From a virus (taxonomy: Duplodnaviria > Heunggongvirae > Uroviricota > Caudoviricetes), in IMG/VR virus record IMGVR_UViG_2609460219_000010, positions 1 through 39,097 of that record: 39,097 nucleotides of DNA. The stretch is one strand, 5' to 3'. The position numbers and the translations under genes were made by a program. Shown one piece after another: positions 4,460 to 33,686 of the stretch. The notes below the pieces were generated by a model. That model saw only the letters and a program-made list of their open reading frames with translations. It was not told the DNA's origin and searched no databases. The stretch's first letter is position 1, and every line of letters begins with the position of its first letter.

Positions 4460-4478
4460 TTAGTAGGCTCCAGAAAGC

Positions 4479-4510: not shown

Positions 4511-4523
4511 GAGAAATTTCAGC

Positions 4524-5683: not shown

Positions 5684-5909
5684 GTTTTAGTTATTCCTGG
5701 CTTTAATGAAGTAGCATATCGATGGCAATCCACCATCAAAAAGTCAGTGCAGTGTAATCGCTCGTCTCAAAAAACAACAGTTTTTAGAGCACATTTTGTT
5801 GTTTTTCAGGCGTTACGAATTTCAGGTTACCTTCACCCAGCCACTTTTTTACAAGGGAAAGATCCGATGATTTTCGGCGCATCCATGCTGTTCTGCAGAA
5901 GCTGGACAT

Positions 5910-6173: not shown

Positions 6174-6176
6174 TGC

Positions 6177-7238: not shown

Positions 7239-7240
7239 GC

Positions 7241-8130: not shown

Positions 8131-10139
8131 TAACCCACCCTCACCTGATTACTTCGCATGACCTGAGCATTTGCAGACTGTTGCCGACGTGCAACCTCAT
8201 TACCGACAGCGTGCGGATCTCCGCCACCGTAAATGTGGTAGGTATTTTGCTGGTTAACCTCTGTCACTTTGCCACTAATTCCTGCCACGGCAGCCTTATT
8301 AATCAGCTCCCGAGAATAGATATTTCTTCCATTTTCATGCTGGATAATGCTGCTCATCAATGCTGACATGGTTTGCGGATCGCTCATATTCAGGGCAGCC
8401 CTGGGATCCACTCCCAGTCGTTGCGATACAGCCCTGATATACGCAGTTGTGTTGTTATTATCAGACGCAGGTGCCCAGGTAGAGATAATTTTCTCCACAC
8501 TGTTTATTCCCCGTCCGGCGTACAGCATTAACTGACGAGCAAGAGCCCGTAATCCATCAAAAGCAGTTTCAAATCTGGCAAATCGCCCGCCCGGGCGTTC
8601 AAGAGAAGCCCCTGCCTGACCAGCAAAATTAAGGTTTCCCGGATTGTTATTCCGTTCTCCTCGTTTCGTAGCCTGTGCATATTGTTCCGGCTCATCATCC
8701 CCAAACCAGCCGCGTACCGTCCGGCCCACGCTGCGGGGATCGAATCCCCAGTGCTCTTTAATCCAGTCGGCAGTACTGTTAGCGCTGTCTGTAACCATCG
8801 GCATCGCTGACGGATTTTCGCTGNCCTGATTAAGTATCTGTTTGCCGATGCTGACGGCATCAGCCCAGCGGCCATCTTTGATAGCGTTGAGCAGGTCGGC
8901 GATCATGTTCAGTATTTTGCTGAATTCGCCCATCTGGTCGATGAAGTTGCTGAAATCCCACTTCAGGGACCATGATTTGGGGTCAATATTGAGCAGTTTC
9001 GCCAGCGCTTTCACCAGGTCGTTAACGGTCGTTTTAAGGTCACGAACCATCTTCAGCGCGGCATCAACCTCCGGTTTCCACTTGCCCCAGTCAATCAGGC
9101 TGTCGCCGCCTTCCTTCCAGGTCTGATAGTCCTCCCACAGGAGGGCAATCCCCGCCGCCAGCGCGGTAATGAGGCCAATCGGCGACATCCAGAACGTACT
9201 GTTCAGAATGCGCAACGCAATCGTCAGTGCGCCAAACAGCGAGATCAACTCCCGCGTTTGCTTATCCAGCGATTGCCACCAGGTGATGAGGCCTGATGTT
9301 CCTTCAATCAGTCTGAAGAACAGCCGCCCGATAATATCCCCGAGCGCCAGAATGCCTTTTATGGCTTTCGTCAGGGTCTGCTCGATACGCGGGAAGTTGT
9401 CCAGAATATGGCGGCGCAGGGTGTCCAGCGAACCCGCAAGCCCCCCCGCAAGATTAGAGCCGATTTTGTCACGGGCCATGCCTGCCATCGCGCTAAACTC
9501 ACGCAGGGAGGTCATAAATTTGTTGGAGCTTCTGGCCGCCTCGTCAGCATTGAAGCCGATAGCTTTCGCCATTGCGCTGTACTGCCCGGAGAAACCACCC
9601 ACACCCCGGCGCATAGCCATCANGGTATTTTCGTCAATGCCCAGCATCTGCGCATACTGGTTAGCCCGGTAATACGGCATGCCGCTGAGCTTCTGGCCTA
9701 CACCTGTAAAAATAGCGGCCATGTCACGCATGTTACCGCTGGCATCCCGTGTCTGTACCCCCAGGCGATTCAGAAATCCCTCTGCACCGGGATTGTTACG
9801 AATAAACCGGGAGAGGCTTTCCAGAGAAGATCGCGCAGCGTCCACGCTGCCGCCAACCTGCGAAACCGCATAGCCAATAGACTGAATTCCCTGGACTGTC
9901 GCGCCGGTGCGCTGTGACGCCCAGTAAAGATTATCCAGACCAGAGGCGATCTTAGCCGTGAAGGCCACCACGGACAGCGCAGCTCCTTCAACAGCCAGCC
10001 CCATTTTGATGACATTTGCAGTTGTACCGGCGAGGACAGAACCGAACTTTTTCGCTCCTGCATCATCCACACTGAAGCCAAGCGAGACGAGGAAATCTTT
10101 AATAGTTTCAGCGTTCATTATCCTCTCTCCATTTCTCAA
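8130..10139 (-). CDS. tail tape measure protein
   Basis: 669 aa, largest tail ORF, follows chaperone/frameshift pair downstream of sheath and tube; alternative start at 10118. Confidence 0.65.
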   Translation of the reverse strand: MRNGERIMNAETIKDFLVSLGFSVDDAGAKKFGSVLAGTTANVIKMGLAVEGAALSVVAFTAKIASGLDNLYWASQRTGATVQGIQSIGYAVSQVGGSVDAARSSLESLSRFIRNNPGAEGFLNRLGVQTRDASGNMRDMAAIFTGVGQKLSGMPYYRANQYAQMLGIDENTXMAMRRGVGGFSGQYSAMAKAIGFNADEAARSSNKFMTSLREFSAMAGMARDKIGSNLAGGLAGSLDTLRRHILDNFPRIEQTLTKAIKGILALGDIIGRLFFRLIEGTSGLITWWQSLDKQTRELISLFGALTIALRILNSTFWMSPIGLITALAAGIALLWEDYQTWKEGGDSLIDWGKWKPEVDAALKMVRDLKTTVNDLVKALAKLLNIDPKSWSLKWDFSNFIDQMGEFSKILNMIADLLNAIKDGRWADAVSIGKQILNQXSENPSAMPMVTDSANSTADWIKEHWGFDPRSVGRTVRGWFGDDEPEQYAQATKRGERNNNPGNLNFAGQAGASLERPGGRFARFETAFDGLRALARQLMLYAGRGINSVEKIISTWAPASDNNNTTAYIRAVSQRLGVDPRAALNMSDPQTMSALMSSIIQHENGRNIYSRELINKAAVAGISGKVTEVNQQNTYHIYGGGDPHAVGNEVARRQQSANAQVMRSNQVRVG

Positions 10140-10350
10140 TGCGCCGCTGGTTATCCGCTTTTACCGCCAGATGGTCATTCAAGAGAGCAATGTCGTACAA
10201 ATCGACAGAGCCATCTTTAAGTGCTGTATAAGGAATTAACCCGGCGTCAACCGGATTGAGAAGGTAGGACAGCCCGTCCGGCAGGCTGTTAAACGTCAGC
10301 CCTGTTGCAGGCTCTGCGTCGTGCTGGTAAGGGGTGTAGGCAAAAAATTT
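10108..10350 (-). other. -1 programmed frameshift extension of tail assembly chaperone
   Basis: In-frame heptamer A_AAT_TTT (plus coords 10344-10350, minus strand) 19 codons before stop; -1 frame stays open ~80 codons with no Met (FAYTPYQHDAEP...EKWREDNER) ending at a TGA (10108-10110) overlapping the tape-measure start. Confidence 0.5.
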
Positions 10351-10748
10351 CCCAGCGAATCGGCGACCACCCGCGCCACCAGATGAAGCATGACCAGCAG
10401 GTCAATATCATCAAACATCAGTTCGCCCCGGGTAAATACCGGCACCCATCCGTCCATATGACGCCGCGACACCACCGCAAGACAGGGATGAATAATCGCA
10501 TCGGTGTCATCTTCGGTCAGGGAAGACAGTTCCTCAGCGATACGCGGGAGCATGGTTTCAAACACCGGTTTTAACTGCTCGAATTTCACGGTGTCGATTT
10601 TGCCGTCAGCAGGCAAACGGGAGCGAATGCTCCCGAAATCTGACATCATTCCCGCCAGTACCGGCAGAAGTTTGCGGGTCACTTTCAGCTGGTCAAAAAC
10701 GCTGAGTTTTGCCACGCGATATTTCACGCCTTTGATTTCTAATTCCAT
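10296..10748 (-). CDS. tail assembly chaperone
   Basis: 150 aa ORF between tube and tape measure; contains in-frame slippery heptamer near its 3' end. Confidence 0.55.
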   Translation of the reverse strand: MELEIKGVKYRVAKLSVFDQLKVTRKLLPVLAGMMSDFGSIRSRLPADGKIDTVKFEQLKPVFETMLPRIAEELSSLTEDDTDAIIHPCLAVVSRRHMDGWVPVFTRGELMFDDIDLLVMLHLVARVVADSLGNFLPTPLTSTTQSLQQG

Positions 10749-10751
10749 GTA

Positions 10752-11192
10752 TTAAAACTCCCCGAGAACCTGGTCAATCTTGCCGCAGTCAAACACCCAC
10801 GGCATCGTATTACCGGTTTTAGCGTTGGCGTTATCCGGTTGTTTCTGGAACGCAACACTGCGTGCTGTGATGATGTCGCCGCTGACCTTGTTGCGGATCA
10901 CGATAACGTTATTCCCCCATGTGGCAGAAGACTGGCTCTGTGCGTTATACGCCAGCGACAATTTTTTATTTGTCGGTGATGTCTTCAGAAGGTTAACGGT
11001 AATCGTCCCGCTTTTATCTGCATGGAGGCTGTGCATCACTTCACCATCAGCACCGATGGTCATGGTGTTTTTAGGACCGCCCATCGCAACCACAATCCCC
11101 TCTTCAGAACTTGCCGAACCGTACCCGAGATCAATCGAACCTGTCGGCCCGGTCAGCGTCGCAGTGACATCCATAAAAGAATAGGTAGACAT
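10752..11192 (-). CDS. tail tube protein
   Basis: 146 aa ORF directly downstream of sheath-sized gene, upstream of chaperone. Confidence 0.55.
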   Translation of the reverse strand: MSTYSFMDVTATLTGPTGSIDLGYGSASSEEGIVVAMGGPKNTMTIGADGEVMHSLHADKSGTITVNLLKTSPTNKKLSLAYNAQSQSSATWGNNVIVIRNKVSGDIITARSVAFQKQPDNANAKTGNTMPWVFDCGKIDQVLGEF

Positions 11193-11202
11193 TCACTTCC
11201 CC

Positions 11203-12348
11203 TTAGCGAACAACGTTAATCTGTACGTCAGCGTAATGAACCGCGCCTGCAAGTTTTATTGCAGCCTGAATCACCGGAGCCTTACGGGCTTCACGTTCTG
11301 ATTGTGCCTGTTCATCCAGCGGCTGGGCGTATACGTAATAACCTTTGGGCAGCGTGTCACCTGATGACAACTGGCCAAGGTCGCCACCGTTCCATACGCC
11401 CGGAGCAATCAGTCCATTCTGAACGGCCTGATCCAGTGATTTTTCAACATTTGATAACAGTCGGGTAATACCGGCTTCAGTCTGGGGAACCTTCGTGGTG
11501 CTGGTATAAAGCAGGTTATAGAGGTTGGTCTGCACATAATTCTGTAACCAGTCCAGGCCGTGGCGTTCATCAAAGAAATCGCCGTTAGCCATCACTCCCT
11601 GCTGGATGATAGCTGTATCATTCTGGTAGTACACGAACACATTGCAGTTTTTTGCATCAAGTGCCGATGCCTGGCTGACTGTCAGTGTTTCATACCCGAC
11701 ACCCGGCTCCTGCTTAAACTTGAGCGTAATCGCGGTATTACTGCCATTGAAATTAACCGTGAATGCCCGGCCAAATGCAGATAACGCAGCGTATTTATTA
11801 CCCGATGAATACTGAATAAAACTGCGTGAATATCCGGCGGTTTTCAGTTCTGATGCCAAATCATCTCTGGATGCAGTCTGCAGGCATTTCTCATCGCTTG
11901 TCGTAATCGCCAGAATACGGCTTACAGAAGAGGATTCGATCGCCGCAGCCACTTTCAGCCAGTCTGCATCCGGAATATCTGCATCGTCTGCAATCCCCAG
12001 CCCATACCATGAAGTATAATCAAGCATGGCATTCACAGCCTGCTCCAGCGTCTCAGGCGTGGCCTGTTCGCTGTCTCCCTTCGTTTTCACCCAACGACCA
12101 ACAAAAACCTCCTGAGGTTTCGGTGATTGTGAGAAAAACACCTGCGCAGCCTTATATTCTGGTGATTCCACGCCAAAATCTTTTCCAATATCTTCCGCGG
12201 CAGAATAACGGCGAATGCGCTCACTTACCGGAATGATTGTGGACGGGCCGAGAATGAGTAATGCACCAAAATTTCGCCCTGATGCTGCACGCGGCGACAT
12301 GATCACATCAACATTAACAACGTTTGATACAGGCAAGCCCTGTTCCAT
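11203..12348 (-). CDS. tail sheath protein
   Basis: 381 aa ORF at sheath position of sheath-tube-chaperone-tape measure order. Confidence 0.6.
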
Positions 12349-12351
12349 AGC

Positions 12352-12918
12352 TTAATCTCCGAAAAAGATTACTGGTGCTTCCACCAGCGATTTAATACCG
12401 TACTCGCGCACAACCTTCCGGCGCAGACGCACCGTCATATCGTAGCGGCGGACCCATTGCTGATTAATAAGTTCAGGGAAGGGAATCAGACCTGTGTAAT
12501 CGCCAAGAGACAGCCCCAGCGCATTCAGTGCTGCGTTGTTCTGCGGTACAGATATACCGTCACGAAACCGGGACGCATACACCATCCCCGCCGGACCATA
12601 AAACGAAGCCATACACTCAATCGTTTCATGCCGCCAGAGCTGAGAGCCATCATCGGTCTGTCTGGTGAATGCCGGACTGTCATCATCTGACCATCCGATA
12701 ACCCCAAACGCACACCAGTTCGTTTCAGCCGGTAGCAGTGGCGGCTGCTCTTTCTGCCAGCGCGGGCGAACCATCCCGGCAGACAGGCCAGAAACGTTAC
12801 GCATCCACTGGCTTAACAGCCTGTCGAGCGCTTCGTCATAATCCGGATCGCCACTGGTTGGTATTAACCATCCGCGCTCTGTACTGGTGTTATTGCTCAA
12901 CCGGAGTTCCCCCATCAA
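12352..12918 (-). CDS. virion morphogenesis protein (head-tail joining region)
   Basis: 188 aa ORF in the block between capsid and sheath. Confidence 0.3.
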   Translation of the reverse strand: MMGELRLSNNTSTERGWLIPTSGDPDYDEALDRLLSQWMRNVSGLSAGMVRPRWQKEQPPLLPAETNWCAFGVIGWSDDDSPAFTRQTDDGSQLWRHETIECMASFYGPAGMVYASRFRDGISVPQNNAALNALGLSLGDYTGLIPFPELINQQWVRRYDMTVRLRRKVVREYGIKSLVEAPVIFFGD

Positions 12919-13279
12919 ACGGCATCAACTCACAATGCGCCTGAACGAATCCGGCCCCATAAGCTGTATACGGGTCGACGAAGGTCACACGATAATCACG
13001 GCCCTGATACGTCACGATATCGGCATCACGGCCAGTCTGTCCCTGCGTCAGTCGCTCAGTCGTCACAATCAGAATTGCACCGCTGATTACCTGCCCTGCC
13101 TGCATACGGCGGTTTTCCAGAGAGCGATCAACAGTTACGACTCCGGCAAACTGCTTTTTAACTTCACTGTCGCTGCCGATCCCGTCCTCATCAACCGTTT
13201 GCACTCGGCGTGTTACCCACAAATTGAAGTCGCAAAAATCGGGGTCAAAAAGCACATCTGTTACATCAAGAGTCGGCAT
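12890..13279 (-). CDS. virion morphogenesis protein
   Basis: 129 aa ORF, overlapping neighbours, head-tail connector block. Confidence 0.3.
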   Translation of the reverse strand: MPTLDVTDVLFDPDFCDFNLWVTRRVQTVDEDGIGSDSEVKKQFAGVVTVDRSLENRRMQAGQVISGAILIVTTERLTQGQTGRDADIVTYQGRDYRVTFVDPYTAYGAGFVQAHCELMPFDGGTPVEQ

Positions 13280-13820
13280 CTTTATCCCTCACTACATGGG
13301 TAATAGCTCTGCGATATTGCCCGGTGTCAATTAATGGTTTCGCCAGATCGGTTCCGGGAGATTCGCCAGCAACACGTCGGGCAAGTTCCAGTGTTGCCCC
13401 CTTGCGCCCCCGACGAGCCCGGGCTTCAACAGTGCTGTCAGCAAGCGGCGTAAAGCCGGTAATAGTCATGTAACGCCTGACGCCATTAGCGGCCAGCGTT
13501 CCGGCACGGTTGAGTGCGCGTTCTGCTCCCGCAGCATTACCATCAAGAGCAGCCTGCGCCGCGGTTTTGAGCTGCGGCACCGTCTGTTCTTCTGCCGATT
13601 TAACGCCGGGGACCAGGTGAGGTCGTGGCGGGATGTTCTGCTCTGGTGAGCCGTATTCGTTGAGGTAACCGATGCCCGCATTACCAAACGGAACATCATC
13701 CCGCTCGCTGTCTTCCGAAGGGATGCCGACCAGCACATCTTTTTTGGTTAACGACCTGAGCGCATCCAGAATGGCCTTAGCGTTATCCACCCTCGTTGTT
13801 ACACCGCTTTTGAAACTCAT
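13266..13820 (-). CDS. virion morphogenesis protein
   Basis: 184 aa ORF, head-tail connector block. Confidence 0.3.
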
Positions 13821-14224
13821 AGCTGGCGACCGCCTGCACCGAACATCGTGATCAACTGATAAAATTCAGCGCCATATCGGGTGTTATTCCAGAAACCTGC
13901 ATCAGGATTCAGCGTCGCGCTGGTGTCATAGCTGACGCTTACCTTGTCAACGGACTTTGAGGACTGAACACCATTGGTTGAACCGCCCGGACCACCAGCC
14001 AGCATCGCTCTGCTGTCTGCCGCCCAGAGCGTCATGTAGTGCGCAACGAACAATCCGGCAAAGTACGGAAACAACTTTTTGCCGGTGACGTTTTCACTCA
14101 GCAGTTCATCGGCCAGATTCAGACGAAACTGGATTTGCGCTTCGGGATATTTGGCAGGGTCAGCAAACTGCGGGAAGTCGCGGCGAAAATCACTTACCGC
14201 TGGCAGACTTTGATTCTTTGGCAT
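13817..14224 (-). CDS. virion morphogenesis protein
   Basis: 135 aa ORF, head-tail connector block. Confidence 0.3.
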
Positions 14225-14411
14225 TTTTTACCTCGTTACGCGCGTCTGTGGCTTTGCCAACGGATACTTCCGCGTGCGCACGAGTGAACCAGTGCGTGGC
14301 AACGTCTTCCTCCACAGCATGACGGCCTTTAACAAACTCGCGCCGTGAACCGTCGGGAAGCGTGAGCACAAACGGGGTATGTACGTGTATTACTGCATTA
14401 TTTTTTGCCAT
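14190..14411 (-). CDS. small virion-associated protein
   Basis: 73 aa ORF directly downstream of capsid gene. Confidence 0.25.
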
Positions 14412-14452
14412 CGGGTCATCCTTAATGGCCCCGCCAGGGGGCCATGTGGCTG

Positions 14453-15394
14453 TTAAATGCCATCAACGTACGAAAGGGTTTCTTTGTACACTGGCTCAAC
14501 CGCACCCAGCTTGCCGTAGTAAGTGACGATCTGATACAGACCGCGATACTGCACCGGCACGCTCTGAAGCGGAACCAGCGGGTAGCGGACGTATTTTTTA
14601 TCGTTGGTGTACGCAACCATGCGATCCTTTTTCCCCACACCACGGCCTTTCAGCCATTTAACCGCGCGGATATTCAGCGGAACACCGTTCTGGTGATAGC
14701 TGATGGTGTTGGTCTGAAGATACGTCAACAGGGACTGGTTACCCGCAGATGAAACGATGATGCTGGACAACAGAGCAAACTGCTCAGGCGGGATCAGCAA
14801 ATCACGCGGAACCACAGAGTAACCGGAAGCGGCCCACGCATCAGACAGCACCTGGTTAATGCTTGCGCGGATTTCGTCCGGTGTTGAGGTTGCCCACGTT
14901 TTAGCAGCGTTGTTGACAGGCACGCCGTCCAGGGTAACAAGGCCTTTCAGGTTTAATGCGGAATCGCCAACATACACCTGTTCATCGTTATCCATCTGCC
15001 ATTTCAGTTGCATCCCGTCATACTTCTGCGTATCGATCGGGCGTCCGACCTGCTGAGCAGCCTGCAATTCTATGACCGTCCAGCCAAGTTCCATCCCCCA
15101 CAGGTTCAGCGGGTTACCGGATTTGCCGATATCCACGTTTACGCCAGCAATAGCGGTTGAGTCTTTGCCTACCCAGTTTTTGCCATTCGGATTTGCACCA
15201 GTACCCGCAGCGGCGAAGCTGGTATTCGTCCAGCTGGAAATGTCATCTGCGATAGAGACATCTTCACGCAACTGAATATCGCGGGTCCAGGTGTACCCCA
15301 CCAGTGGCAGGTTCAGCGTCTGGTCGAGTCGCTCCAGCTCCCCGATGAGAAAGGCACCAGAGCTGTCAACGGTTGCCTGATCAAAAGTAATCAT
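14453..15394 (-). CDS. major capsid protein
   Basis: 313 aa ORF downstream of protease/scaffold and decoration-like genes. Confidence 0.55.
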   Translation of the reverse strand: MITFDQATVDSSGAFLIGELERLDQTLNLPLVGYTWTRDIQLREDVSIADDISSWTNTSFAAAGTGANPNGKNWVGKDSTAIAGVNVDIGKSGNPLNLWGMELGWTVIELQAAQQVGRPIDTQKYDGMQLKWQMDNDEQVYVGDSALNLKGLVTLDGVPVNNAAKTWATSTPDEIRASINQVLSDAWAASGYSVVPRDLLIPPEQFALLSSIIVSSAGNQSLLTYLQTNTISYHQNGVPLNIRAVKWLKGRGVGKKDRMVAYTNDKKYVRYPLVPLQSVPVQYRGLYQIVTYYGKLGAVEPVYKETLSYVDGI

Positions 15395-15405
15395 TCGTCT
15401 GTTCC

Positions 15406-15912
15406 TTAAATCTTCCAGGAAATTTCTGCATTGCCGTCAGCATCACCGGCACCTGTGAATTCAGCGTTGGTCAGCACCACGTTTTTGCCACTGACTGACG
15501 TGGACATGAATCCACCCAGCGGCACTTTGATAGATTCATCAGTGGAGACGACAACGTATACCGGGTCGCCTTTTTTGATGGTGCTGGCATCAAAATCAGA
15601 ACCGAGGTTAACGGTCACGTAGCCACGCTTCATGGCGTCGCCCGGGAAGTTCTTGCCACTCCCCACCTGGCGAACCATGTCCGGCTGCGACGTGGTCGGA
15701 TAAGGGCGCACGTAGATCCCCTTCACCTTGTCTGCGGTATCACCATCTGTCAGCGGCACGAAAAAACCGTCATCATCGTATTTACCAGCCAGGCCATAGG
15801 CAGCAAAGGCGTTATCGGATTTAAGGACCACCGGTTCGACGGTTAAGTCCTGCGGGCGAGAGACAGCCCCGGCAATGCCAACAGGCATCCGGTACAGAAA
15901 TACATTATTCAT
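15406..15912 (-). CDS. capsid accessory/decoration-like protein
   Basis: 168 aa ORF between scaffold/protease and capsid. Confidence 0.35.
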   Translation of the reverse strand: MNNVFLYRMPVGIAGAVSRPQDLTVEPVVLKSDNAFAAYGLAGKYDDDGFFVPLTDGDTADKVKGIYVRPYPTTSQPDMVRQVGSGKNFPGDAMKRGYVTVNLGSDFDASTIKKGDPVYVVVSTDESIKVPLGGFMSTSVSGKNVVLTNAEFTGAGDADGNAEISWKI

Positions 15913-15915
15913 TTT

Positions 15916-17136
15916 TTACCCTTTACGGTTTGCCCAGAATTCAGCGTTTTGTTTGTTCAGGGAAGCGATACTGGTCATGCCCATGTTTGGGCGCTGTGCA
16001 TCGCCGGTGGTGGCGCGGGTGTTTCGCCCNTTGGCAGTCTCAGACACGGCATTAAACGCCATGTCGACCGATTGTTTCGGCAATTTGCGGATATCCGCAT
16101 CACCGACGATCTGGCGAACCAGCGTTTTGTCAGCAGAAGCCAGAACCTCACGTTTGAACGCGGTCGGTTTCATCTTACGGCTCAGATCGATACCCGGAAC
16201 GATAACTTCGGCACGCCAGGCTGAGTCACCAGTAATCGTGGTTTCCTCTTCATCGTCCTCGCCGTCACCGGTCGGATTATCGTCAGACTTATTGTCGTTA
16301 TCGCCCGTCGCATTTCCTTCCAGCTTAGCCATCANGGCTTTCAGTAATGTTTTGAGGTCATCATCACTGTCGCCCGTTGGACCTCCGCCCATCTCTGGTG
16401 CTTTGTCCGGTAGCGGTTGCTGCGGGGACAGGTTGATGTTGAGATTAACGCCCTGCGGCAAATCCCCCTCATCTCCTGTAACCGATGCGGGAGCCGACTC
16501 CACCAGTTCGTTCATGGTGTCAGCGTCACCCGTTTTGATGGCCGTGCGCATGCGGGTCCACCAGCTTTTCTTTTGATTTGCCATTGTGTCTCTGTCTCCA
16601 ATTGCACAACGATTTCCGGCTCTGCCTTTAGGGACAAGAGCCACATGGTTTCCGGTAATATCAACCTGCTCAGCCTTACCCGGCTCAGTCTGCTTATATT
16701 CCGCGTCATAGCCACACGACACTTCGCGCAGGCCATCTTCGATCAGCTGAATGGCGTTTTCGTCTTTGACGATAAGGTCAGCCAGCATCAAATCAGACTG
16801 CACACCCGTCCCGCGCCGGACATTCTGAAGATGCCCGACCGCGAGCTCTTTCCAGTTCTCTGGATTCACCAGCCGCACATCCCCGTTTTCATCCTCGGGA
16901 TGCAACACCGTGATACTCATTCCTTCGAATGAGGCAAGCGTGGCCGGATGGAATACCTGCTCAGGAGAACGCGTGACGACTATTTCACCGAACTTATCGG
17001 GTTTCAGTTTTGGCAGGTCATCAGCACCATAGAGCTGCTTACCTGTTCGTCCTATCGGCACGTCTTTGCACAGCAACGAGCCGTCAGCCAGCTGATAGCG
17101 GGTTTCCCCCAGCCGGGTATTGAAAAAATATTTCAT
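15916..17136 (-). CDS. prohead protease / scaffolding protein
   Basis: 406 aa with highly acidic low-complexity middle region (DDDL..., GDGEDDEEE) typical of scaffold; position between head-morphogenesis gene and capsid. Confidence 0.4.
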
Positions 17137-17150
17137 GTGTTACCTGCGAT

Positions 17151-17924
17151 TCAGGCGGGGTAAGAATGGGAGGTGGGAAAAACAATTTCTTTATAACAGC
17201 GACAATTCGGGAACTCGCCAGCGTGACCTGTCATGCAGTCAAGCGTTGGAGGTTTGCCCCATTCGACAAATTTACCTTCCATTTCCCGATGAGAATGCCT
17301 GACATCACCATCTTCGGCTGTACGCCAGATATAACCATTCGAACCAATTGCCAGCGCACGCGCCTGATCCAGCGCGCCGGTTGCACGTCCAAGTTCAGTA
17401 CGGGCAATCAGGTCAGCTCTGGACTTTGCTATATCACCCGATGCAGCTATTTCTTTAGCAAAATGTTCCGCTCTCCCACCGGTCACAACAGCTTCAATCG
17501 CCCGATTCTGGATGTCGTACACCCTGTCAGCCGCCTCGAGGGGGAGCGATTTGATGTACTTAATCTGCTCGGCAACGATGGATTTCATCACCTGGCCTAC
17601 CGGGGCGCGGTCAACCATGTTGCGCAGCTCTGCACTGATGTTCCGGCTGTGCTGACGCCACTGCTTTTCATTCTGGCGCGCAATGTCGGCGGTAAAGTTC
17701 TCAGCAACCTTCGTCGCCCANGGGGTGATGATTTCGCTGTAGCGCTCCAGCGCATCCATGATTTCGGTGACGCTATCGTTTGAACCATCGTAGCGCCCAT
17801 TTACGATATCCCCGACCGCCCGCGCTATCTGCCGTAGGCTCGTTCGATATCGGATCTCCGCCTGGCGACTCTGGCGGGTTGTCGCCAAGTTCGCCGATGC
17901 CTGGCGGCGCTTCGTCTTCGGCAT
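17151..17924 (-). CDS. head morphogenesis protein (minor head protein)
   Basis: 257 aa ORF immediately downstream of portal; N-terminus overlaps portal ORF so true start probably internal. Confidence 0.5.
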   Translation of the reverse strand: MPKTKRRQASANLATTRQSRQAEIRYRTSLRQIARAVGDIVNGRYDGSNDSVTEIMDALERYSEIITXWATKVAENFTADIARQNEKQWRQHSRNISAELRNMVDRAPVGQVMKSIVAEQIKYIKSLPLEAADRVYDIQNRAIEAVVTGGRAEHFAKEIAASGDIAKSRADLIARTELGRATGALDQARALAIGSNGYIWRTAEDGDVRHSHREMEGKFVEWGKPPTLDCMTGHAGEFPNCRCYKEIVFPTSHSYPA

Positions 17925-19242
17925 TCTCTATGTCCTCGTCGGTAATGGATGCCCCGATGCCGGTGACGTCAGAGTTTTCGCGCAGGTCGGTCATTGCCGC
18001 CTTACGCGTCATCAATCCGTCGCCCAGCGCGGTGCTGATCGCGTTGGTGGTGTTTACGGCCACCGTTGAGCGGTCAACGTCAGACATTTGCCATAGCGGG
18101 TTAAACTCAAACGTGAAATCGTCCGGCAGTGGCTTACCGAGTTCCGAGCGGTGCATAATGTCCAGTATCCGGCGCATCGGCAGCCGTAAGCGGCGCTCCT
18201 GCAATGAGCTCACCCGGTCGTAATAGTTGGCAAGATCTGCATCACCGGTTGAAAATCCTTTCGGGGACTGTCCGAACAACCGCACCAGTGGAATACCAAC
18301 AGCGCCACTAATCTGTTCTGCAAACTGTGATAGGATGTCATCCAGACCACTGAAGCTGTACTGATGCGTTTCAAACTTATCCCGCGAGTCCATGAGCGTC
18401 ATGCCTTCATTGCTCTGGAACTGTCGAATCAGGTCGATATTCTTCAGCAACGCTTCATACGCAGGACCACCAAGTGCGATAAGCTCGCGTAGCTTCTCCA
18501 CGCTGTAGGTACGCAAATGCGCTTTGTAGACCAGCTGCGCCGCGCCGACAGTGGCGCTGTCGAACGCAGTAAGACGATCCCAGATACGCTCCACAACGGA
18601 CATGCCCCATTCGTTCTCGGTCATTTTCTGCTGGAAAGGTAGCGTGACGCCGTCGAATCGAATCAGGCGACTGTGATGGATACGCCAGGAAGGGATACCT
18701 GTCGCGGTGGTCACCACATCGTAAAACTCAGGTTTACCCAGGTCCGGCCCCATATCTTTAATGCGGCGGGTCAGTACCGGGTCAATCATCCAGCGGTCGA
18801 GCGGGAGAATCCCCTTAAACTTGCCCTTACCGATGGTTTCGGGTCGCAGCGGGGTCATTGGTGCCTGCCCCTCAATCATGATGAAACCCACCGCGCCGCC
18901 GTAGAGGCGCGACCATTTCAGCACGTCATTCAGCGCATCCCAGATTTGCAACTCATCCAGTTGTGATTCGAGAATGCCACGATCTTTTGCATCAATTTCC
19001 GAAGTGATGCGAATGCCTTTGCGGGTCATATCATCCGGGATAGCATCGACTGCTTCGCCGATGATCCAGGATGAACGATAGGACCATTCCACCAGCATGC
19101 GGTTACGACTGGTGAAATTAGCCCGGTAGGTGGATGCTGAGTGCTGGTTAGGTGTCTGCATCCCTACGCGGGCGACAAAGTTCTCATAGCCATCAGCGGT
19201 GGCCTGTGCCGTTCGCTGAGAGGCTTGCTTGTTTCGTGCCAT
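17773..19242 (-). CDS. portal protein
   Basis: 489 aa ORF directly downstream of terminase large subunit. Confidence 0.6.
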   Translation of the reverse strand: MARNKQASQRTAQATADGYENFVARVGMQTPNQHSASTYRANFTSRNRMLVEWSYRSSWIIGEAVDAIPDDMTRKGIRITSEIDAKDRGILESQLDELQIWDALNDVLKWSRLYGGAVGFIMIEGQAPMTPLRPETIGKGKFKGILPLDRWMIDPVLTRRIKDMGPDLGKPEFYDVVTTATGIPSWRIHHSRLIRFDGVTLPFQQKMTENEWGMSVVERIWDRLTAFDSATVGAAQLVYKAHLRTYSVEKLRELIALGGPAYEALLKNIDLIRQFQSNEGMTLMDSRDKFETHQYSFSGLDDILSQFAEQISGAVGIPLVRLFGQSPKGFSTGDADLANYYDRVSSLQERRLRLPMRRILDIMHRSELGKPLPDDFTFEFNPLWQMSDVDRSTVAVNTTNAISTALGDGLMTRKAAMTDLRENSDVTGIGASITDEDIENAEDEAPPGIGELGDNPPESPGGDPISNEPTADSAGGRGYRKWALRWFKR

Positions 19243-20864
19243 CAGGCCTGTCTCCCTAGCAGCTCCCAGATGTTCAGGGCTGAATTCATTGGGGCATAGT
19301 TGATCATCACCGAGTCGGCAAGGTTTGGCGACCGGGTTCCATCAGGCTGTTTATCAATAACGATTTTTCCCACACTATTAATGGAATAGGTCGGCTGCGA
19401 AAGCTCGATGATGAGTTTATCTTTGAGTGCCATGCTACTGCTGATTGAGATGATTTCGTCCGGGTTGTAAGCCATACCTTCAACCACGGCGCGCCAGGTA
19501 TTCTGAAAAAGTTTACGTAACCGCCACCAGCTCTGGGCTTTGGCGTTAGCGAAGAAGTCCTTGTTAAGACGTGCGGCTTGCCCGTTGTCCCCGCGAACAG
19601 CTTCATCATCCGGATCAAATACCGCGCCACTACCTCGAAACGGTGTGGCGAGTATTGACGGTCGGCGCGCAGCGTTACGCAGTTCGTTGATAGCGCGTGC
19701 ATCGCCGCGAACGCCAGCGCCCAGCCCGTCCTCGTCAAAGCGAAACTCTTCGAGGTTGTCCTGTTCGCAAAAGCCGAAAACCTTCTCGACGGACTGATAA
19801 ATGTCGCTGCCCACACCGGACCATTCCCGCACATTCTCCAGGAGGAAGCCATGACGGGTGGAAAAGGCATTTTTGTCCCTGCCTTCGTCGGCGACATCCA
19901 TCGCGCCAAGTCGTTTGCCTGTTGGCTGGATCCCCAGTTTGATATGCGCATCAACGGCAGCCTGTACCCATTCGGATGGAATCAGAACGCCTTCCGCTGA
20001 TGCGCTGTAGTTCAGATCAAGTTCCTGTGCCACCACCACCGGATTATCGATTTTCTCGCATTCCCTGCGATACCACTCTTCATCCTTGCGAGGATCATCC
20101 CGCCAGTGGAATGTGAATACCGGTATCTTCCCGCCATGACGCTTCTGAGCGAACGGGTTCGCCATGCCATTAACTGAACTCAGGTCAATACGGCAACGCG
20201 TCGTTTGTGACAACGCCGCATCAATCAGCAGAGGACGCTGAAGGAATGCAGCCTCATCAACCAGATAAAGCGTGGTACGGTCACCACGACCAATATTATC
20301 GCCAGCCTCGCCTTTGATAACGGCACCAGTTTCAGGAAACTCAACACGCATATATGGCGCGTGCTTCTTCTCGCTCCACGAACCGCGAAACTCTACAGGT
20401 AGTGTTTCCACGAACTTGCGCGCCTTCCAGAACAATGCTTTCGGGTCACCGGTGCTGTCGACGTATTCCTCTTTACGGGAGCCGAAACCGATAACCATTT
20501 CTTTGTTGAAGAGACAAAGCGAGCAGGCCAGTCCGATCGCGGTCCAACTGAGCCCCATTTCACGGGATTTTTCGGTAATACCATTCTCCCGATTGCCCCA
20601 GCGTTCCATAATCCAGTGGATCCACTCCTCCTGCTTAGGGAAGAGTAAAAACGGAATGGTCACCGGCAGGCCATAATCAATATTACGCGGGTCCGTTGTC
20701 ATGCCCCAGTCGATGATGAACTGAGCCGGATTGGTTCGGTAAAACTGTTTTAGTGCAGGCAATATTTCAGGATTCTGGCGAATGCGCTGTAAGCGTTCCA
20801 TCCGCCATTCAAAAACCATCTGGTAATCAGGATGTTTAAAATCGAAGGGGAATGGTAACGGCAT
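19242..20864 (-). CDS. terminase large subunit
   Basis: 540 aa; follows small subunit; size and order canonical. Confidence 0.7.
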
Positions 20865-28294: not shown

Positions 28295-29310
28295 AGATCC
28301 ACCCCGTAAATCCAGTCAGTGTTTGTCAGGTCGAGTTTTGGTTTTCCGGCTGTCACGCCAGCCTGTTGCTTGTTACGGTTGATTTCGAGCTGGGTCCACT
28401 TGTCGCGGAGTTTGGCCGGACTCAGCACGTTACCGGACCAGAAGTTGTCCTGGCAGGCCCAGCGGAAAAGCACACACATATCGCGGTGGTTACGTCCGTC
28501 ACGTTCACGCATCAGGCGGATATCGTTAGCCCACCCAGCAAAATTCGGTTTTCTGGCTGATGGCGCGATGGTCTTCACCATGTCAAACATCCACTCTGCG
28601 GCGGTCAGGTCTTCTGCTGTCCCCCACTTGCTGCCGCTCTGAATCGCAGCATCCGCTTTCACCACAGGAAGGTCGTTTTCTGGCAGGTCAGAGGATTCGC
28701 CAGAATTCTCGGACGAATAAGGTTTTATATTGTCTTTTGTTAGTTTGTCTTTTGTGTTTACCTGATTCGGGTAAGTGCCTTTACCTGATTTGGGTAAACT
28801 TTTCTTACCTGATTCAGGTAAATTTANCTCTTTCAGGTAAACTTTATTTTTCTTACCTGATTCGGGTAATGTTGACCATTCACTGACCACATTATTAATG
28901 CCTATATTCCGCCCGCTCTGAATAAAAATCCCACGCTTTACCAGAGCACTTTTTGCAGCAGAACACTTGTGCGGCAATATCCCGGTTAATTCGGAAAGTT
29001 GCTCGTTGCTAACCCAATCCAGTTTTTTATTAAAGCCATATGTTTTGCGCATGACAGCCAGAAAGACCAGAAGCTGGTGCTGTGTTAATCCGGCCAGCAT
29101 CACAGCTTCCAGCAACTCATTTGCAATGCGCGTATAACCATCATCGAGATCTGCCACGCGCGGCTCCTTTTGTGCCGCATCCGGCACTGGAAAATTGAAT
29201 ATCTCAGCAGTGTTTGCCATAATTCCTCCCGCAATGAGTGTGTTACGATTTGCACCTGAAAGTCGGTTCTGTTCCCGCAGACCGACTTTCGCCATTTTTG
29301 AACCTGTCAT
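28291..29310 (-). CDS. O: replication initiator O-like protein (hybrid: non-lambda N-terminal domain, lambda-type C-terminal domain)
   Basis: C-terminus ...RWACQDNFWSGNVLSPAKLRDKWTQLEINRNKQQAGVTA.KPKLDLTNTDWIYGVDL recalled as lambda O C-terminus; N-terminal half differs; iterons inside the gene. Confidence 0.8.
   Translation of the reverse strand: MTGSKMAKVGLREQNRLSGANRNTLIAGGIMANTAEIFNFPVPDAAQKEPRVADLDDGYTRIANELLEAVMLAGLTQHQLLVFLAVMRKTYGFNKKLDWVSNEQLSELTGILPHKCSAAKSALVKRGIFIQSGRNIGINNVVSEWSTLPESGKKNKVYLKEXNLPESGKKSLPKSGKGTYPNQVNTKDKLTKDNIKPYSSENSGESSDLPENDLPVVKADAAIQSGSKWGTAEDLTAAEWMFDMVKTIAPSARKPNFAGWANDIRLMRERDGRNHRDMCVLFRWACQDNFWSGNVLSPAKLRDKWTQLEINRNKQQAGVTAGKPKLDLTNTDWIYGVDL
28758..28869. 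repeat. origin iterons (four to five 17-bp repeats TTACCTGATTCGGGTAA) inside O
   Basis: Copies at 28758-28774, 28781-28797, 28805-28821, 28853-28869 plus a degenerate copy around an N near 28827; each internally palindromic; AT-rich tract adjacent. Confidence 0.7.
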
Positions 29311-29852
29311 ATTGCCCCCAGCATGGTGGTGACCATCGCCATCAATGGACCAGCCAGATCTGGGTCCACTCGAAACATCGACACAATGCCTTCACTCATC
29401 TCCTTCAGTTTCTGGTGGCGTGGTGCGTTGAGAATGACCGCCTGCTTTGCCTCACTGAGTTCCTTTTCCATTTCAGCCAGCCGAGCCATGAAGCTATCCT
29501 GCTCAACCAGGTGGCCGCGATATTCCAGCGGTAGTACCGCCAGAATTGCCGGGGTCAGTTCACGCACGTTATTTCGGTATTTTTCAGAATCGAATTTGTT
29601 ATCGAGGAAGCGGAACAGCTTCTGGCGTGCACGACTGACATCATCAGGAAAATCGATGGTGCCGCCGCCCTGTGCTCGATACTCATTCACAATGAGTGCG
29701 GCAACTACATCCTGATTATCTTCAGCAGACCAGGCGCGGACGGCATCACGAATTTTTTCGTGGCCTGGCACCTGTTTTATTTGAGAACGATTTATCACCG
29801 CAGTCGGGCTAAATCCGCTAGTCTGTTGGTATGTAAGTGGTTGCATAATCAT
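29307..29852 (-). CDS. putative CII-like regulator (cII slot)
   Basis: 181 aa ORF between cro and O; assignment positional. Confidence 0.45.
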   Translation of the reverse strand: MIMQPLTYQQTSGFSPTAVINRSQIKQVPGHEKIRDAVRAWSAEDNQDVVAALIVNEYRAQGGGTIDFPDDVSRARQKLFRFLDNKFDSEKYRNNVRELTPAILAVLPLEYRGHLVEQDSFMARLAEMEKELSEAKQAVILNAPRHQKLKEMSEGIVSMFRVDPDLAGPLMAMVTTMLGAI

Positions 29853-29876
29853 CGCCTTATCAGTTAACGCCGCAGA

Positions 29877-30110
29877 TTAGGCGGCAGAATTACTCGCGTT
29901 AAACAATGGTGCGAGGTCGGGACGAATATCTGCTGGCTTAATCTTTCCACCAGTGGCTGAGACAATTTTCATTACATAGCGGGCATCAATTCCGCCACCG
30001 TGTAGCCAACGCCAAACAGTGGGCTGGGCTACACCGCATAGATCTGCCAGTCGTTTTTGACTACCTGTAATACTGATTGCGAGTTGAATGGTTTGATTTG
30101 TCATTATCAA
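29877..30110 (-). CDS. cro: Cro-like repressor (HTH)
   Basis: 77 aa, HTH-like segment SQKRLADLCGVAQPTVWRW; divergent from cI across a 100-bp operator region. Confidence 0.65.
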   Translation of the reverse strand: MIMTNQTIQLAISITGSQKRLADLCGVAQPTVWRWLHGGGIDARYVMKIVSATGGKIKPADIRPDLAPLFNASNSAA

Positions 30111-30136
30111 TTCCTATTGGTATTACAATGAATGGA

Positions 30137-30165
30137 ATAATAGCAATGCGTATTAACCATGGCAA
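30137..30165 (-). promoter_or_regulatory. candidate PR promoter
   Basis: Minus strand -35 TTGCCA, 17-bp spacer, -10 TATTAT, about 27 nt upstream of cro ATG. Confidence 0.4.
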
Positions 30166-30170
30166 TAGCA
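30138..30170. promoter_or_regulatory. candidate OR operator repeats (AATAGCAAT core)
   Basis: Two copies of the AATAGCAAT/CAATAGCA motif overlapping the PR -10 and -35; same motif recurs at candidate OL. Confidence 0.4.
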
Positions 30171-30179
30171 AAACGTGTT

Positions 30180-30207
30180 TTGACCATCAATACGCAAGCG
30201 TATAAAT
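30180..30207 (+). promoter_or_regulatory. candidate PRM promoter (leaderless cI transcript)
   Basis: TTGACC, 15-16 bp spacer, TATAAA/ATAAAT ending about 9 nt before cI ATG at 30216. Confidence 0.35.
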
Positions 30208-30215
30208 TAAAACTT

Positions 30216-30908
30216 ATGAAAAAAGAAACTCTTGCTGATCGCTTAAACCTAGCGATGGAACAATCTGGGATGTCTCAAGGCGCTCTTGCAAAGGCGTCTG
30301 GCGTAGCTCAACCCACAATCTGGAGACTGACAAGCGGCAACGCGCGCGGCTCAACAAAAATTGTTGAAATAGCTAATGCATTGGGTGTTCGAACAGAGTG
30401 GCTCTCATCAGGCATAGGCCCGATGAGAAATGACGGTCAACAATCAGGGAAGCCTACTGTCAACCATTCCAAATACTTCAAGATTGACGTTCTTGATATA
30501 GAAGTGAGTGCCGGGCCGGGAGTCATCAACCGTGAGTTTGTAGAAGTCCTACGCTCGGTTGAGTACTCGTTTGACGATGCTCGTCACATGTTCGATGGCA
30601 GGAAGGCGGAAAATATCCGCATCATTAACGTACGTGGTGACAGCATGTCAGGAACAATCGAACCAGGTGATCTGCTGTTCGTTGATATCACGGTTAAATC
30701 TTTCGACGGTGATGGCATCTATGCGTTTCTGTACGACGACACAGCCCATGTAAAGCGCCTGCAAATGATGAAGGATAAGCTGTTGGTTATCTCTGATAAC
30801 AAGAGCTACTCACCGTGGGANCCGATCGAGAAAGACGAGATGAACCGGGTGTTCATCTTCGGTAAAGTTATTGGGAGCATGCCCCAGACGTACAGGAAAC
30901 ATGGATAA
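30216..30908 (+). CDS. cI: CI-type repressor (HTH + S24 LexA-like autopeptidase)
   Basis: N-terminal HTH (QGALAKASGVAQPTIWRL); C-terminal Ser-Lys dyad motifs GDSM and VKRL; not lambda cI. Start taken at internal Met 30216. Confidence 0.75.
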   Translation: MKKETLADRLNLAMEQSGMSQGALAKASGVAQPTIWRLTSGNARGSTKIVEIANALGVRTEWLSSGIGPMRNDGQQSGKPTVNHSKYFKIDVLDIEVSAGPGVINREFVEVLRSVEYSFDDARHMFDGRKAENIRIINVRGDSMSGTIEPGDLLFVDITVKSFDGDGIYAFLYDDTAHVKRLQMMKDKLLVISDNKSYSPWXPIEKDEMNRVFIFGKVIGSMPQTYRKHG

Positions 30909-30974
30909 TCAGTACTGTGCTGATGAGTCGTTTAGGGGATAGTAAATTTAATTAGAATTAGACGAGAGCGATTT

Positions 30975-31839
30975 ATGGATTGTGACGCTTTACAGGATAT
31001 AAAAATCTCTCTTAGGTATGACGGAAAAGATGCTTTAAATCATGAAATAGATTTGAACTGCCTAGGAGAATCCCTAAAGGGTTTTTCTAAAGTTCTCTCA
31101 ACAGCAGCTTCTTTCTCTGTTACACAAAAATATAGTAAATACATTAATTATCAGGAAGTTAAGGTTTACGCACGCGAAGCAAAAGCTAACTGCTTTACTC
31201 TTGAAGCAGTTCTTAACTTCGCCACTCAGAACCAGTTGTTCTCGGGGATCGCCGCAACTATACTTGGCGCAATACTACAATATATTTTTGCGAGAAATTC
31301 TAACAAGAAAGATGAAATGAAAGCTTTGCAGCAGTCACTTGAAAAGGCCATAGAGGCACTAGGAAACAAGGATGCTGGAACCATTGATAAGTTGATCTCT
31401 TTGATTGACCGAATGGCTGTAGAGCTTCGCCCCTCTGTAAGGCAGGCAGTATCACCTATTGGTAATACTTGCGATCAGATAAGTGTTGCAACAAATGTTG
31501 ACGGCTGCCTTCTAAAAGTTAACGAGAGAGATAAAGCTGAAATTGATAGGCTTGATGATGATGAAGTTCTCGGTCTTCGTGAGTATCGTGCTTTTCTTAC
31601 AGAATTTGATGCACAAAATATGACAGCTAAAATAATTTTAGATGGTGATGACTCNAAAAAAGAGAATCACTGCTGAAATTAGCGATCCAGCTGCAGGAAA
31701 GAAGAATAACCCGTATATTAGAGCTCTTAGTGCATATATATCAACCAAAGGTGATCCATCTGCAGTATTCACTATAACCGCAAAGGCTACTGTTAAAAAA
31801 GGCCAGATAAACAGGTTATTTATTGTAGATGCGAAATGA
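30975..31839 (+). CDS. hypothetical protein in rex position (candidate superinfection-exclusion/defence), frame-disrupted at an A-run
   Basis: AT-rich ORF directly after cI on same strand; predicted single TM segment ([19 protein letters not shown]); frames 30975..31676 and 31642..31839 join if the N at 31655 before AAAAAA is dropped; own terminator follows. Confidence 0.5.
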
Positions 31840-31843
31840 TTTC

Positions 31844-31870
31844 CCCGGCCGTCGTGCCGGGTTTTCTTTT
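31844..31870 (+). terminator. intrinsic terminator after rex-position ORF
   Basis: CCCGGC-CGTCGT-GCCGGG hairpin followed by TTTTCTTTT. Confidence 0.5.
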
Positions 31871-31996
31871 GCCTCCCCTCATCACACACCGTTCAAAAAA
31901 CCACCACAACCCCCGCTTCAGTTATCGCTATGCGATGCAAGTCACAAAATTAATTCCTTTTGCTATCAAACAGTTAATATCAAAATACATCAATCA

Positions 31997-32038
31997 ATAG
32001 CAATAAGTATTGATATCACCAATAGCAATAGCTATTAT
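31997..32038 (+). promoter_or_regulatory. candidate PL promoter with OL operator palindrome
   Basis: TTGATA (32010-32015), 17-bp spacer, TATTAT (32033-32038); palindrome AATAGC-AATA-GCTATT (32020-32035) and second CAATAGCAATA copy upstream. Confidence 0.4.
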
Positions 32039-32111
32039 CACCATGTCGCAACAACACAACGATACGGCAACCACCTGTTTCACCGTTGCGATGACCGCTT
32101 AGATCCGCAGT

Positions 32112-32522
32112 TTGAATTTCAGCAGGCTTCGGGGAGTGCGAGGGGTGAAACGGACGCGTGAACGTCGGTGTGACCAGCTGAAATCAACACAACACTTTAT
32201 ACCTCAGTCGCTTCAACGAGGCGGCTTAGTTATGACAACCGGCGGCCATCCACCGCCTGAATACGCGCAGAAGTCTCTATATGTTCAGCAGCCCAGCTTA
32301 CGGGCAGGAGTTTTTATGGTTCATCAACATTACGGAACGCAGACCGTTAATCGCGGCGCGGTCATGCCAGGAATGCTGGTCAAACACAAAGATGGTACCT
32401 GGACTGCATCAGCTAATTTACGCGGGCGGCTTTATCTGCATCGCGGCATCGAGCGCACTTATACCCGTGATTTGCTCGTAGAAGTTTTTCTCGACGGACG
32501 CGGTAACGGCCTGAATCACTAA
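32112..32522 (+). CDS. hypothetical protein in the N/kil slot (Arg-rich N-terminus if long start is used)
   Basis: 136 aa ORF (alternative start 32232) between candidate PL and gam; N-terminal RLRGVRGVKRTRERR. Confidence 0.35.
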   Translation: MNFSRLRGVRGVKRTRERRCDQLKSTQHFIPQSLQRGGLVMTTGGHPPPEYAQKSLYVQQPSLRAGVFMVHQHYGTQTVNRGAVMPGMLVKHKDGTWTASANLRGRLYLHRGIERTYTRDLLVEVFLDGRGNGLNH

Positions 32523-32598
32523 CCCCCCTTTCCTGTTTTCCTAATCAGCCTGGCATTTCGCGGGCGATATTTTCACAGCCATTTTCAGGAGTTCAGNC

Positions 32599-32895
32599 AT
32601 GAACGCTTATTACATTCAGGATCGTCTTGAGGCTCAGAGCTGGGCGCGTCACTACCAGCAGATCGCCCGTGAAGAGAAAGAGGCAGAACTGGCAGACGAC
32701 ATGGAAAAAGGCCTGCCCCAGCACCTGTTTGAATCGCTATGCATCGATCATTTGCAACGCCACGGGGCCAGCAAAAAAGCTATTACCCGTGCGTTTGATG
32801 ACGATGTTGAGTTTCAGGAGCGCATGGCAGAACACATCCGGTACATGGTTGAAACCATTGCTCACCATCAGGTTGATATTGATTCAGAGGTATAA
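32599..32895 (+). CDS. gam: Gam (RecBCD inhibitor)
   Basis: 98 aa, matches recollection of lambda Gam short form; upstream in-frame sequence resembles long-form N-terminus. Confidence 0.9.
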
Positions 32896-32900
32896 AACGG

Positions 32901-33686
32901 ATGAGTACAGCACTCGCAACGCTGGCAGGGAAGCTGGCTGAACGTGTCGGCATGGATTCTGTCGACCCAGAGGAACTGATCACCACTCTTCGCCAGACGG
33001 CATTTAAAGGTGATGCCAGCGATGCGCAGTTCATCGCATTGTTGATCGTCGCCAACCAGTACGGCCTTAATCCGTGGACGAAAGAAATTTACGCCTTCCC
33101 TGATAAGCAGAACGGCATTGTTCCGGTGGTGGGCGTTGATGGCTGGTCCCGCATCATCAATGAAAACCAGCAGTTTGATGGCATGGACTTTGAGCAGGAC
33201 AATGAATCCTGCACATGCCGGATTTACCGCAAGGACCGTAATCATCCGATCTGCGTTACCGAATGGATGGATGAATGCCGCCGCGAACCATTCAAAACTC
33301 GCGAAGGCAGAGAAATCACGGGGCCGTGGCAGTCGCATCCCAAACGGATGTTACGTCATAAAGCCATGATTCAGTGTGCCCGTCTGGCCTTCGGATTTGC
33401 TGGTATCTATGACAAGGATGAAGCCGAGCGCATTGTCGAAAATACCGCATACACTGCAGAACGTCAGCCGGAACGCGACATCACTCCGGTTAACGATGAA
33501 ACCATGCAGGAGATTAACACTCTGCTGATTGCCCTGGACAAAACATGGGATGACGACTTATTGCCGCTCTGTTCCCAGATATTTCGCCGCGACATTCGCG
33601 CATCGTCAGAACTGACACAGGCCGAAGCAGTGAAAGCTCTTGGATTCCTGAAACAGAAAGCCTCTGAGCAGAAGGTGGCTGCATGA
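32901..33686 (+). CDS. bet: Bet single-strand annealing recombinase
   Basis: 261 aa, near-identical to my recollection of lambda Bet. Confidence 0.95.

Follow-up and report, generated by a model that had tools for sequence, protein, structure and literature searches.

Introduction

In phage lambda, the rexA and rexB genes lie downstream of cI and before OL/pL. The Rex system is expressed with the repressor in lysogens, has a membrane component and leads to abortive infection; its hallmark is the exclusion of T4 rII mutants, with loss of the membrane potential. The lactococcal AbiP protein is anchored to the membrane by its N-terminus, binds nucleic acids and also acts by abortive infection. 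The BstA protein of the Salmonella prophage BTP1 has a KilA-N-like N-terminal domain. BstA mediates abortive infection and is encoded by one gene downstream of cI, presumably transcribed from the cI promoter and followed by its own Rho-independent terminator (PMC8585504). The region from cI to N was described as a hotspot harbouring rexAB and bstA, with expression presumably driven by the repressor promoter (Owen et al. 2021, PMC8585504). Lysogens of phage phi80, unlike lambda lysogens, do not allow T4 to plate and lower the P1 titre approximately 10-fold; the gene was not named (Rotman et al. 2010, PMC2885432).

In this work we analysed a gene (the target gene) located between the repressor and the left promoter of a lambdoid prophage with a lambda-like early region (IMG/VR record IMGVR_UViG_2609460219_000010; the whole 39,097-nt stretch of DNA is called the window). 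A sequence-only reading had proposed it as a candidate exclusion or defence gene, disrupted in frame at an A-run. As judged from the comparisons below, the repressor-to-pL slot holds here an intact cassette with a single cargo gene, homologous to phi80 gene 40A, and a defence role of its protein is plausible as a prediction. Part of this is known already: Pfam and RefSeq list the family, phi80 records have included it since 1988, the slot is recognised as a hotspot, and the defence role has been predicted by machine learning.

Results

Organisation of the repressor-to-pL region

The features of the locus are collected in Table 1. The product of the cI-type gene matches Pfam Peptidase_S24 (2.1e-18) and HTH_3 (1.5e-6); its start was placed at the ATG at 30216, which matches the 693-nt RefSeq coding sequence (the program-made ORF begins at 30159). 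The target gene follows on the same strand and is AT-rich (38.4% GC, vs. 46.9% in cI and 49.6% in the window). A scan of 29800-32700 revealed neither a terminator-like nor a promoter-like site on the + strand of the 66-nt spacer between both genes. Downstream, a 6-bp, all-GC hairpin (31844-31861) followed by TTTTCTTTTG begins 5 bases past the stop codon of the second of the two frames into which the target gene is broken. This terminator is kept in L008, a Klebsiella-type copy, where stem and loop show paired base changes, and is also common to phages bearing other cargo.

Repeats of the 17-mer CAATAGCAAT type are present twice between cro and cI (30138 and 30163) and twice after the terminator (31995 and 32020), and the promoter scan detected a promoter-like site on the - strand at 30165-30137, at the right operator region. 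The target gene is located between cI and the left operator/promoter, and therefore it has the same position as lambda rexA/rexB. The sequence-only reading had described an AT-rich ORF behind the repressor gene without a terminator between them, closed by a hairpin and a T-run and placed in the rex slot, and this layout was found again at every point.

Table 1. Coordinates of the features of the locus in the window.
Feature	Position	Strand	Remarks
cro-like HTH gene	29877..30110	-	77-aa ORF; divergent from cI; equivalent in fetched locus L001 annotated as helix-turn-helix protein
Right operator region	30138..30179		two 17-nt repeat copies, TAATAGCAATGCGTATT and CAATAGCAAAACGTGTT; repeat family D1
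cI-type repressor gene	30216..30908	+	HTH_3 and Peptidase_S24; annotated WP_000712396.1 in L001
cI-to-target spacer	30909..30974	+	66 nt
Target gene, DUF7946-DUF7947 protein	30975..31839	+	homologue of phi80 gene 40A; 287 codons without the N at 31655
Hydrophobic TM-like helix	31236..31292	+	codons 88-106, 19 residues, followed by RNSNKK
C-terminal beta domain (DUF7947), OB-fold	31563..31836	+	residues about 197-287
N + A6	31655..31661	+	apparent +1 frameshift from an ambiguous homopolymer-length call
Intrinsic terminator	31844..31870	+	CCCGGCCGTCGTGCCGGG then TTTTCTTTTG; closes the cI and cargo unit
Left operator repeats	31995-32011, 32020-32036	+	overlap the pL-like promoter; layout as in annotated phi80 OL/pL
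pL-like promoter	32010-32038	+	TTGATA, 17 nt, TATTAT

Unlike in phi80 and lambda, there is no N-like antiterminator gene between the pL-like promoter and the kil-like gene (32040-32600). Since no N gene follows pL, an RNA like HK022 put was considered and rejected: the stretch 32045-32215 folds no better than its shuffles (z = +1.0). An Rfam scan of 29500-33000 revealed no RNA element. The gene in the position of cII (29307-29852, - strand) encodes a YdaT-domain protein and not a lambda-type CII; its RefSeq copies are named 'toxin YdaT domain-containing protein'. The virion module (window 1-20000) is 96% identical to the myovirus-type phages vB_EcoM-606R2/611R5 and approximately 82% identical to Salmonella phage SEN34. 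A myovirus-type virion module is joined here to a lambda-like early region, and the genome is therefore a mosaic.

The frame break at an ambiguous homopolymer

As given, the target gene consists of two overlapping ORFs, 30975..31676 (233 aa) and 31642..31839 (65 aa). Dropping the N at 31655 yields a single ORF of 864 nt and 287 codons, as had been proposed from the letters, and the repaired product is identical at every residue (100% identity) to the RefSeq protein WP_000340376.1 (287 aa). In the alignment, the relatives read CTC-AAAAAAG where the window has CTCNAAAAAAG, and the complete E. coli genomes align to the 1001-nt query across 1000 nt. The gene is present in 77 of 5426 complete E. 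coli genomes; all 77 have A6 and none has A7. These figures were obtained with 81-nt probes: the A6 probe matched all 77 genomes at 99% identity or more (100% among the matches listed), while the A7 probe gave 98.8% in all 77. A6 was also found in the 34 close copies within the fetched loci (34/34), and the A-run is broken in the Klebsiella-type copies (CC-AACAGG).

The window harbours 17 isolated Ns (1109, 1892, 2045, 6537, 8824, 9623, 16030, 16335, 17721, 20871, 28827, 30821, 31655, 32597, 34505, 35935 and 38337). Fourteen of them overlap a fetched relative, and each of the 14 marks the start of a homopolymer. In 12 cases the N takes the place of a run base that is present in the relatives; in the other two (31655, before A6, and 34505, before a G-run) the N is extra. 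This pattern looks like homopolymer-length uncertainty in base calling, not mutation.

If the frameshift were real, the copy in this isolate would be an A7 pseudogene or the OFF state of a phase-variable gene. The extra symbol before A6 would fit this, and true inactivations of the gene do occur elsewhere (IS1 in NZ_CP128594, an IS in L073 and a +1 C in L047/L048). However, the symbol is an N and not an A, it belongs to a set in which every comparable N marks the start of a homopolymer, the protein has otherwise zero differences from the intact one, and A7 is absent from the 77 complete genomes and the 34 fetched copies. Six or seven A are, in addition, short for a contingency tract. A contingency tract was rejected, as the length of the run is constant (77/77 and 34/34) and the tract is interrupted in Klebsiella-type copies; we regard a real frameshift as highly improbable. 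Both phase variation and decay are unsupported, because A6 is constant in the complete E. coli genomes and the fetched close copies, the run is broken in Klebsiella and the Ns stand at homopolymer starts. Rather than decay or a genetic switch, the apparent frameshift most likely reflects an ambiguity of the sequencing, and the true sequence at 31655 is almost certainly A6, which gives the 287-aa WP_000340376.1. The sequence-only reading had left open a phase-variable, a decayed and a mis-called gene; the mis-call stands and the other two fall, decay also in view of the dN/dS reported below.

There is a practical consequence: single Ns beside homopolymers in this record are base-calling ambiguities that should not be taken as frameshifts, and the ORF calls adjoining the 17 N positions are of uncertain length.

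A family shared with phi80 gene 40A

The repaired protein matches two Pfam domains: DUF7946 (PF25678) at residues 11-191, across the full profile (E 3.8e-55, 187.2 bits vs. a cutoff of 27), and DUF7947 (PF25679) at residues 201-287 (E 1.4e-18, 67.1 bits vs. a cutoff of 27). The DUF7947 match requires the removal of the N, because this domain sits in the second frame of the window. PHROG 5147, a family without a function label, was matched as well. Among annotated phages the clearest relative is phi80, whose gene 40A (PHI80_46, AFV29182.1) is 62% identical across 99% of the length; the only other record matched was Bacteriophage sp. BK070131 (50% identity). The product had been said to match nothing recognisable from the letters alone, a statement that these searches overturn.

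The phi80 40A protein has, like the target protein, DUF7946 and DUF7947, and its gene occupies the slot between cI and the annotated OL/pL. The two loci differ in the repressor and in the region downstream of pL, where phi80 has the N gene and nutL and the window has neither. The label 'acetate kinase superfamily domain' given to phi80 40A in the databases found no support in the Pfam scan. In the 1988 phi80 record X13065 (L089, X13065.1, 3001-3856) the homologue is split into 40A (209 aa) and 40B (95 aa), while the 2012 phi80 genome has one 288-aa gene, and tblastn on X13065 needs two frames. This split seems to be an old sequencing error, comparable to the N at 31655.

Word-indexed searches retrieved 65 and then 119 homologues, with hosts that include Klebsiella, Enterobacter, Serratia, Proteus, Morganella, Neisseria, Vitreoscilla and Xanthomonas. 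A profile search against 1.84 billion representatives gave about 490 hits, nearly all of 270-300 aa and with the same layout. In the main texts covered, a set without Rotman 2012 (the phi80 genome) and Brenes and Laub 2025, no mention of the DUF7946/DUF7947 family, PDC-S42, WP_000340376 or phi80 40A was found.

Conservation, repressor linkage and cassette exchange

The target gene is intact in 79 of 89 loci by a strict test, most of the others being contig ends or start offsets, and dN/dS against a Klebsiella-type copy is 0.055. These alignments show a gene that is intact in its relatives and, by this ratio, under strong purifying selection. Of 86 loci, 69 have an S24 repressor gene directly upstream on the same strand; in the close copies, the median distance between the two genes is 67 nt. 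Pfam confirmed an upstream S24 repressor in 10 of 10 diverse loci with cargo approximately 37-100% identical to the window protein. In most of the other loci the upstream gene encodes a short HTH repressor, and about five have no adjoining repressor gene.

The pairing with the repressor is not fixed. In L002 (NZ_CP014111.1) the same gene (99.9% identity) stands behind a cI with a different DNA-binding N-terminal region and different operators (the comparison covered window 29850-30450 and 31976-32045), and the cassette has therefore recombined between immunity types. The terminator and the pL-kil-gam-bet-exo region recur in the phages Perceval and PhiR68_2 (96% identity), whose slot holds a different two-gene cassette (L090:1916-3466 and L091:2016-3471, respectively) encoding proteins of approximately 340 aa and 150-168 aa. 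The smaller protein is annotated as transmembrane in Perceval, and neither cassette protein had a Pfam or PADLOC match. The layout of this two-gene cassette resembles RexAB. Across these comparisons, the target gene behaves as a swappable accessory cassette.

Some copies are disrupted. Two 99.3%-identical IMG/VR prophage copies (L047, 5001-5862; L048, 2223-3084) carry a +1 C at the equivalent of window 31060, which could itself be a homopolymer error. An IS is inserted past residue 161 in L073 (5001-7113), and an IS1 in the complete genome NZ_CP128594.1. Such disruptions may mean that the gene is costly, or simply that prophages decay.

Predicted architecture of the protein

The approximately 490 representatives have one predicted build in common: an N-terminal domain comes first, then a single conserved hydrophobic helix and a helical bundle, and an OB-fold closes the C-terminus. 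In the target protein, residues 88-106 have a mean Kyte-Doolittle value of 1.85 and form the only such peak, in agreement with the single TM-like segment that had been noticed before. The helix of the family has a median KD19 of 1.83, with at least 1.6 in 67 of 73 members. Lysines and arginines average 3.3 in the 10 residues after the helix vs. 0.25 in the 8 residues before it (73 members). The position of the helix is conserved and its sequence is not, except for a near-invariant glycine (G91). The hydrophobicity and the charge bias fit a predicted membrane helix that leaves the C-terminal 180 residues in the cytoplasm. This topology is tentative, because the 87-residue N-terminal domain has 10 K/R and no signal peptide.

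AlphaFold2 was run on P0002, which is 91% identical to the repaired protein, with 73 diverse sequences (mean pLDDT 81). The model has, from the N-terminus, a strand (9-16), a long helix (27-50) and a further strand (75-80), all with moderate confidence, followed by the hydrophobic helix (92-108), further helices (112-129, 134-150 and 152-158) and a beta-rich C-terminal domain. The predicted alpha/beta N-terminal domain harbours the conserved motif R-Y-D-G-x-D-A-x-x-H. Residues invariant across the 73 sequences include G17 and H23 in this motif and D212, D237, P238, Y247 and K270 in the OB domain, with K219 and R230 nearly invariant (at least 90%).

The fold search, a check that the sequence-only reading had called for, gave only generic folds. 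The C-terminal domain was recognised as a generic OB-fold, its best match being the metal-binding SilF/CusF and not a nucleic-acid binder. The helical part matched only generic bundles, and the N-terminal domain gave nothing informative, even with the better model. A profile search against the PDB sequences found nothing under E 0.02, only short helical matches.

Evidence for an anti-phage role and comparison with known systems

The exact protein, WP_000340376.1, is listed in the 'uncharacterized_clusters' sheets of DefensePredictor as a predicted novel defence gene, with mean log-odds of 6.28 (an assembly from the 69-strain, mainly ECOR, set) and 7.45 (another genome), the cutoff being 4. If the model draws on genomic context, this call is not fully independent of the argument from the slot. 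The contig of WP_000340376.1 is absent from the paper's table of 94+24 tested units. The PADLOC candidate family PDC-S42 gave a weak partial match (E 1.5e-4; residues 9-127 vs. 4-113 of the 302 positions of the profile), and the same profile matches 40 of 73 family members (best E 6.5e-7). The likeness to PDC-S42 covers the N-terminal 120 residues or so, the profile is of similar length to the protein, and PDC-S42 is itself only a candidate family. Pfam, NCBIfam and PADLOC revealed no similarity to any exclusion family or named defence family.

The DUF7946/DUF7947 family resembles no characterised system. RexA and RexB homology was rejected: there is a single gene here, and hhalign gave probabilities of 0.1% against RexA and 0.3% against RexB. 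BstA shares the one-gene arrangement behind cI; it belongs to a different family, has no membrane helix and possesses the aba self-immunity DNA element. Membership of the BstA family was also rejected, as Pfam and PADLOC (in a release assumed to include the BstA model) returned only DUF7946, DUF7947 and the weak PDC-S42 match. The likeness to AbiP is one of concept only, an analogy. DS-7, a validated DefensePredictor hit in which a basic patch follows a membrane helix, has no significant similarity to the target protein. SNIPE is a nuclease system, and Pfam found no nuclease domain in the target protein. The Tai system of phi80 (orf63) was judged unrelated because it is located elsewhere, upstream of the packaging genes.

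Discussion

Taken jointly, that the gene is intact and that it encodes an anti-phage membrane protein expressed in lysogens is somewhat probable from what its sequence and its relatives tell. The exclusion or defence role proposed by the sequence-only reading fits the repressor linkage, the PDC-S42 match, the DefensePredictor call and the phenotypes of phi80 lysogens; the function itself we infer. In lysogens, the maintenance promoter would drive cI and the target gene as one unit, with the transcript ending at the hairpin (31844-31870). The product would be anchored in the membrane with its OB-fold domain in the cytoplasm, and would act on superinfecting phages. The OB-fold domain may recognise phage nucleic acid or protein at the cytoplasmic side of the inner membrane, and the membrane helix would then compromise the membrane, giving abortive infection, that is, the outcome of Rex in one polypeptide. 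Alternatively, the membrane helix might block genome entry.

An entry block could also be the whole function of the protein: interference with the injection machinery (superinfection exclusion), with survival of the cell, as for P22 SieA and HK97 gp15. The single conserved membrane-type helix and the lack of a recognisable enzymatic or toxin domain would suit it, SieA is described as a prophage-expressed exclusion protein (PMC10883804), and SNIPE shows that defence is possible at the site of injection (PMC13190303). We consider it unlikely: the protein has no sequence or profile likeness to the exclusion families in Pfam, NCBIfam and PADLOC, approximately 180 residues including the OB-fold lie on the predicted cytoplasmic side of the helix, and what phi80 is reported to do to P1 is to lower its yield, with prophage induction, and not to prevent infection (PMC2885432). 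Doubtful to much the same degree is a lysogen-expressed cargo that serves something other than defence, such as prophage induction, repressor stability, host envelope physiology or virulence. Precedent exists in bstA, which was first tied to virulence phenotypes (PMC8585504), and the tight linkage to S24 repressors would also be expected of a regulatory partner of the repressor. However, a gene tied specifically to one repressor would not be expected beside repressors with unrelated DNA-binding domains and operators, as this one is, and unrelated cassettes replace it in near-identical backbones, so that it is a dispensable cargo. To our knowledge, the characterised occupants of the slot (rexAB, bstA and HK022 nun) all have exclusion functions.

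The reading of the target gene as a lysogen-expressed anti-phage gene can be extended to the family. Tentatively, the DUF7946-DUF7947 proteins, including phi80 gp40A, may constitute a widespread single-polypeptide defence in which a membrane-anchored OB-fold sensor perceives some component of a phage that is entering or replicating and itself executes exclusion; in this full form we hold the proposal to be rather less probable than not. If true, the family would explain the T4 block and the P1 depression by phi80 lysogens, and it would differ in mechanism from RexAB, BstA, SieA and SNIPE and form a class of its own. The repressor-to-pL slot is a classic site of lysogen-expressed exclusion genes, and the family occupies it in hosts ranging from Enterobacteriaceae to the Neisseria and Xanthomonas types. 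Through phi80, the long-standing T4/P1 observation becomes directly testable, and the outcome would be either a new single-gene membrane defence or the removal of a candidate.
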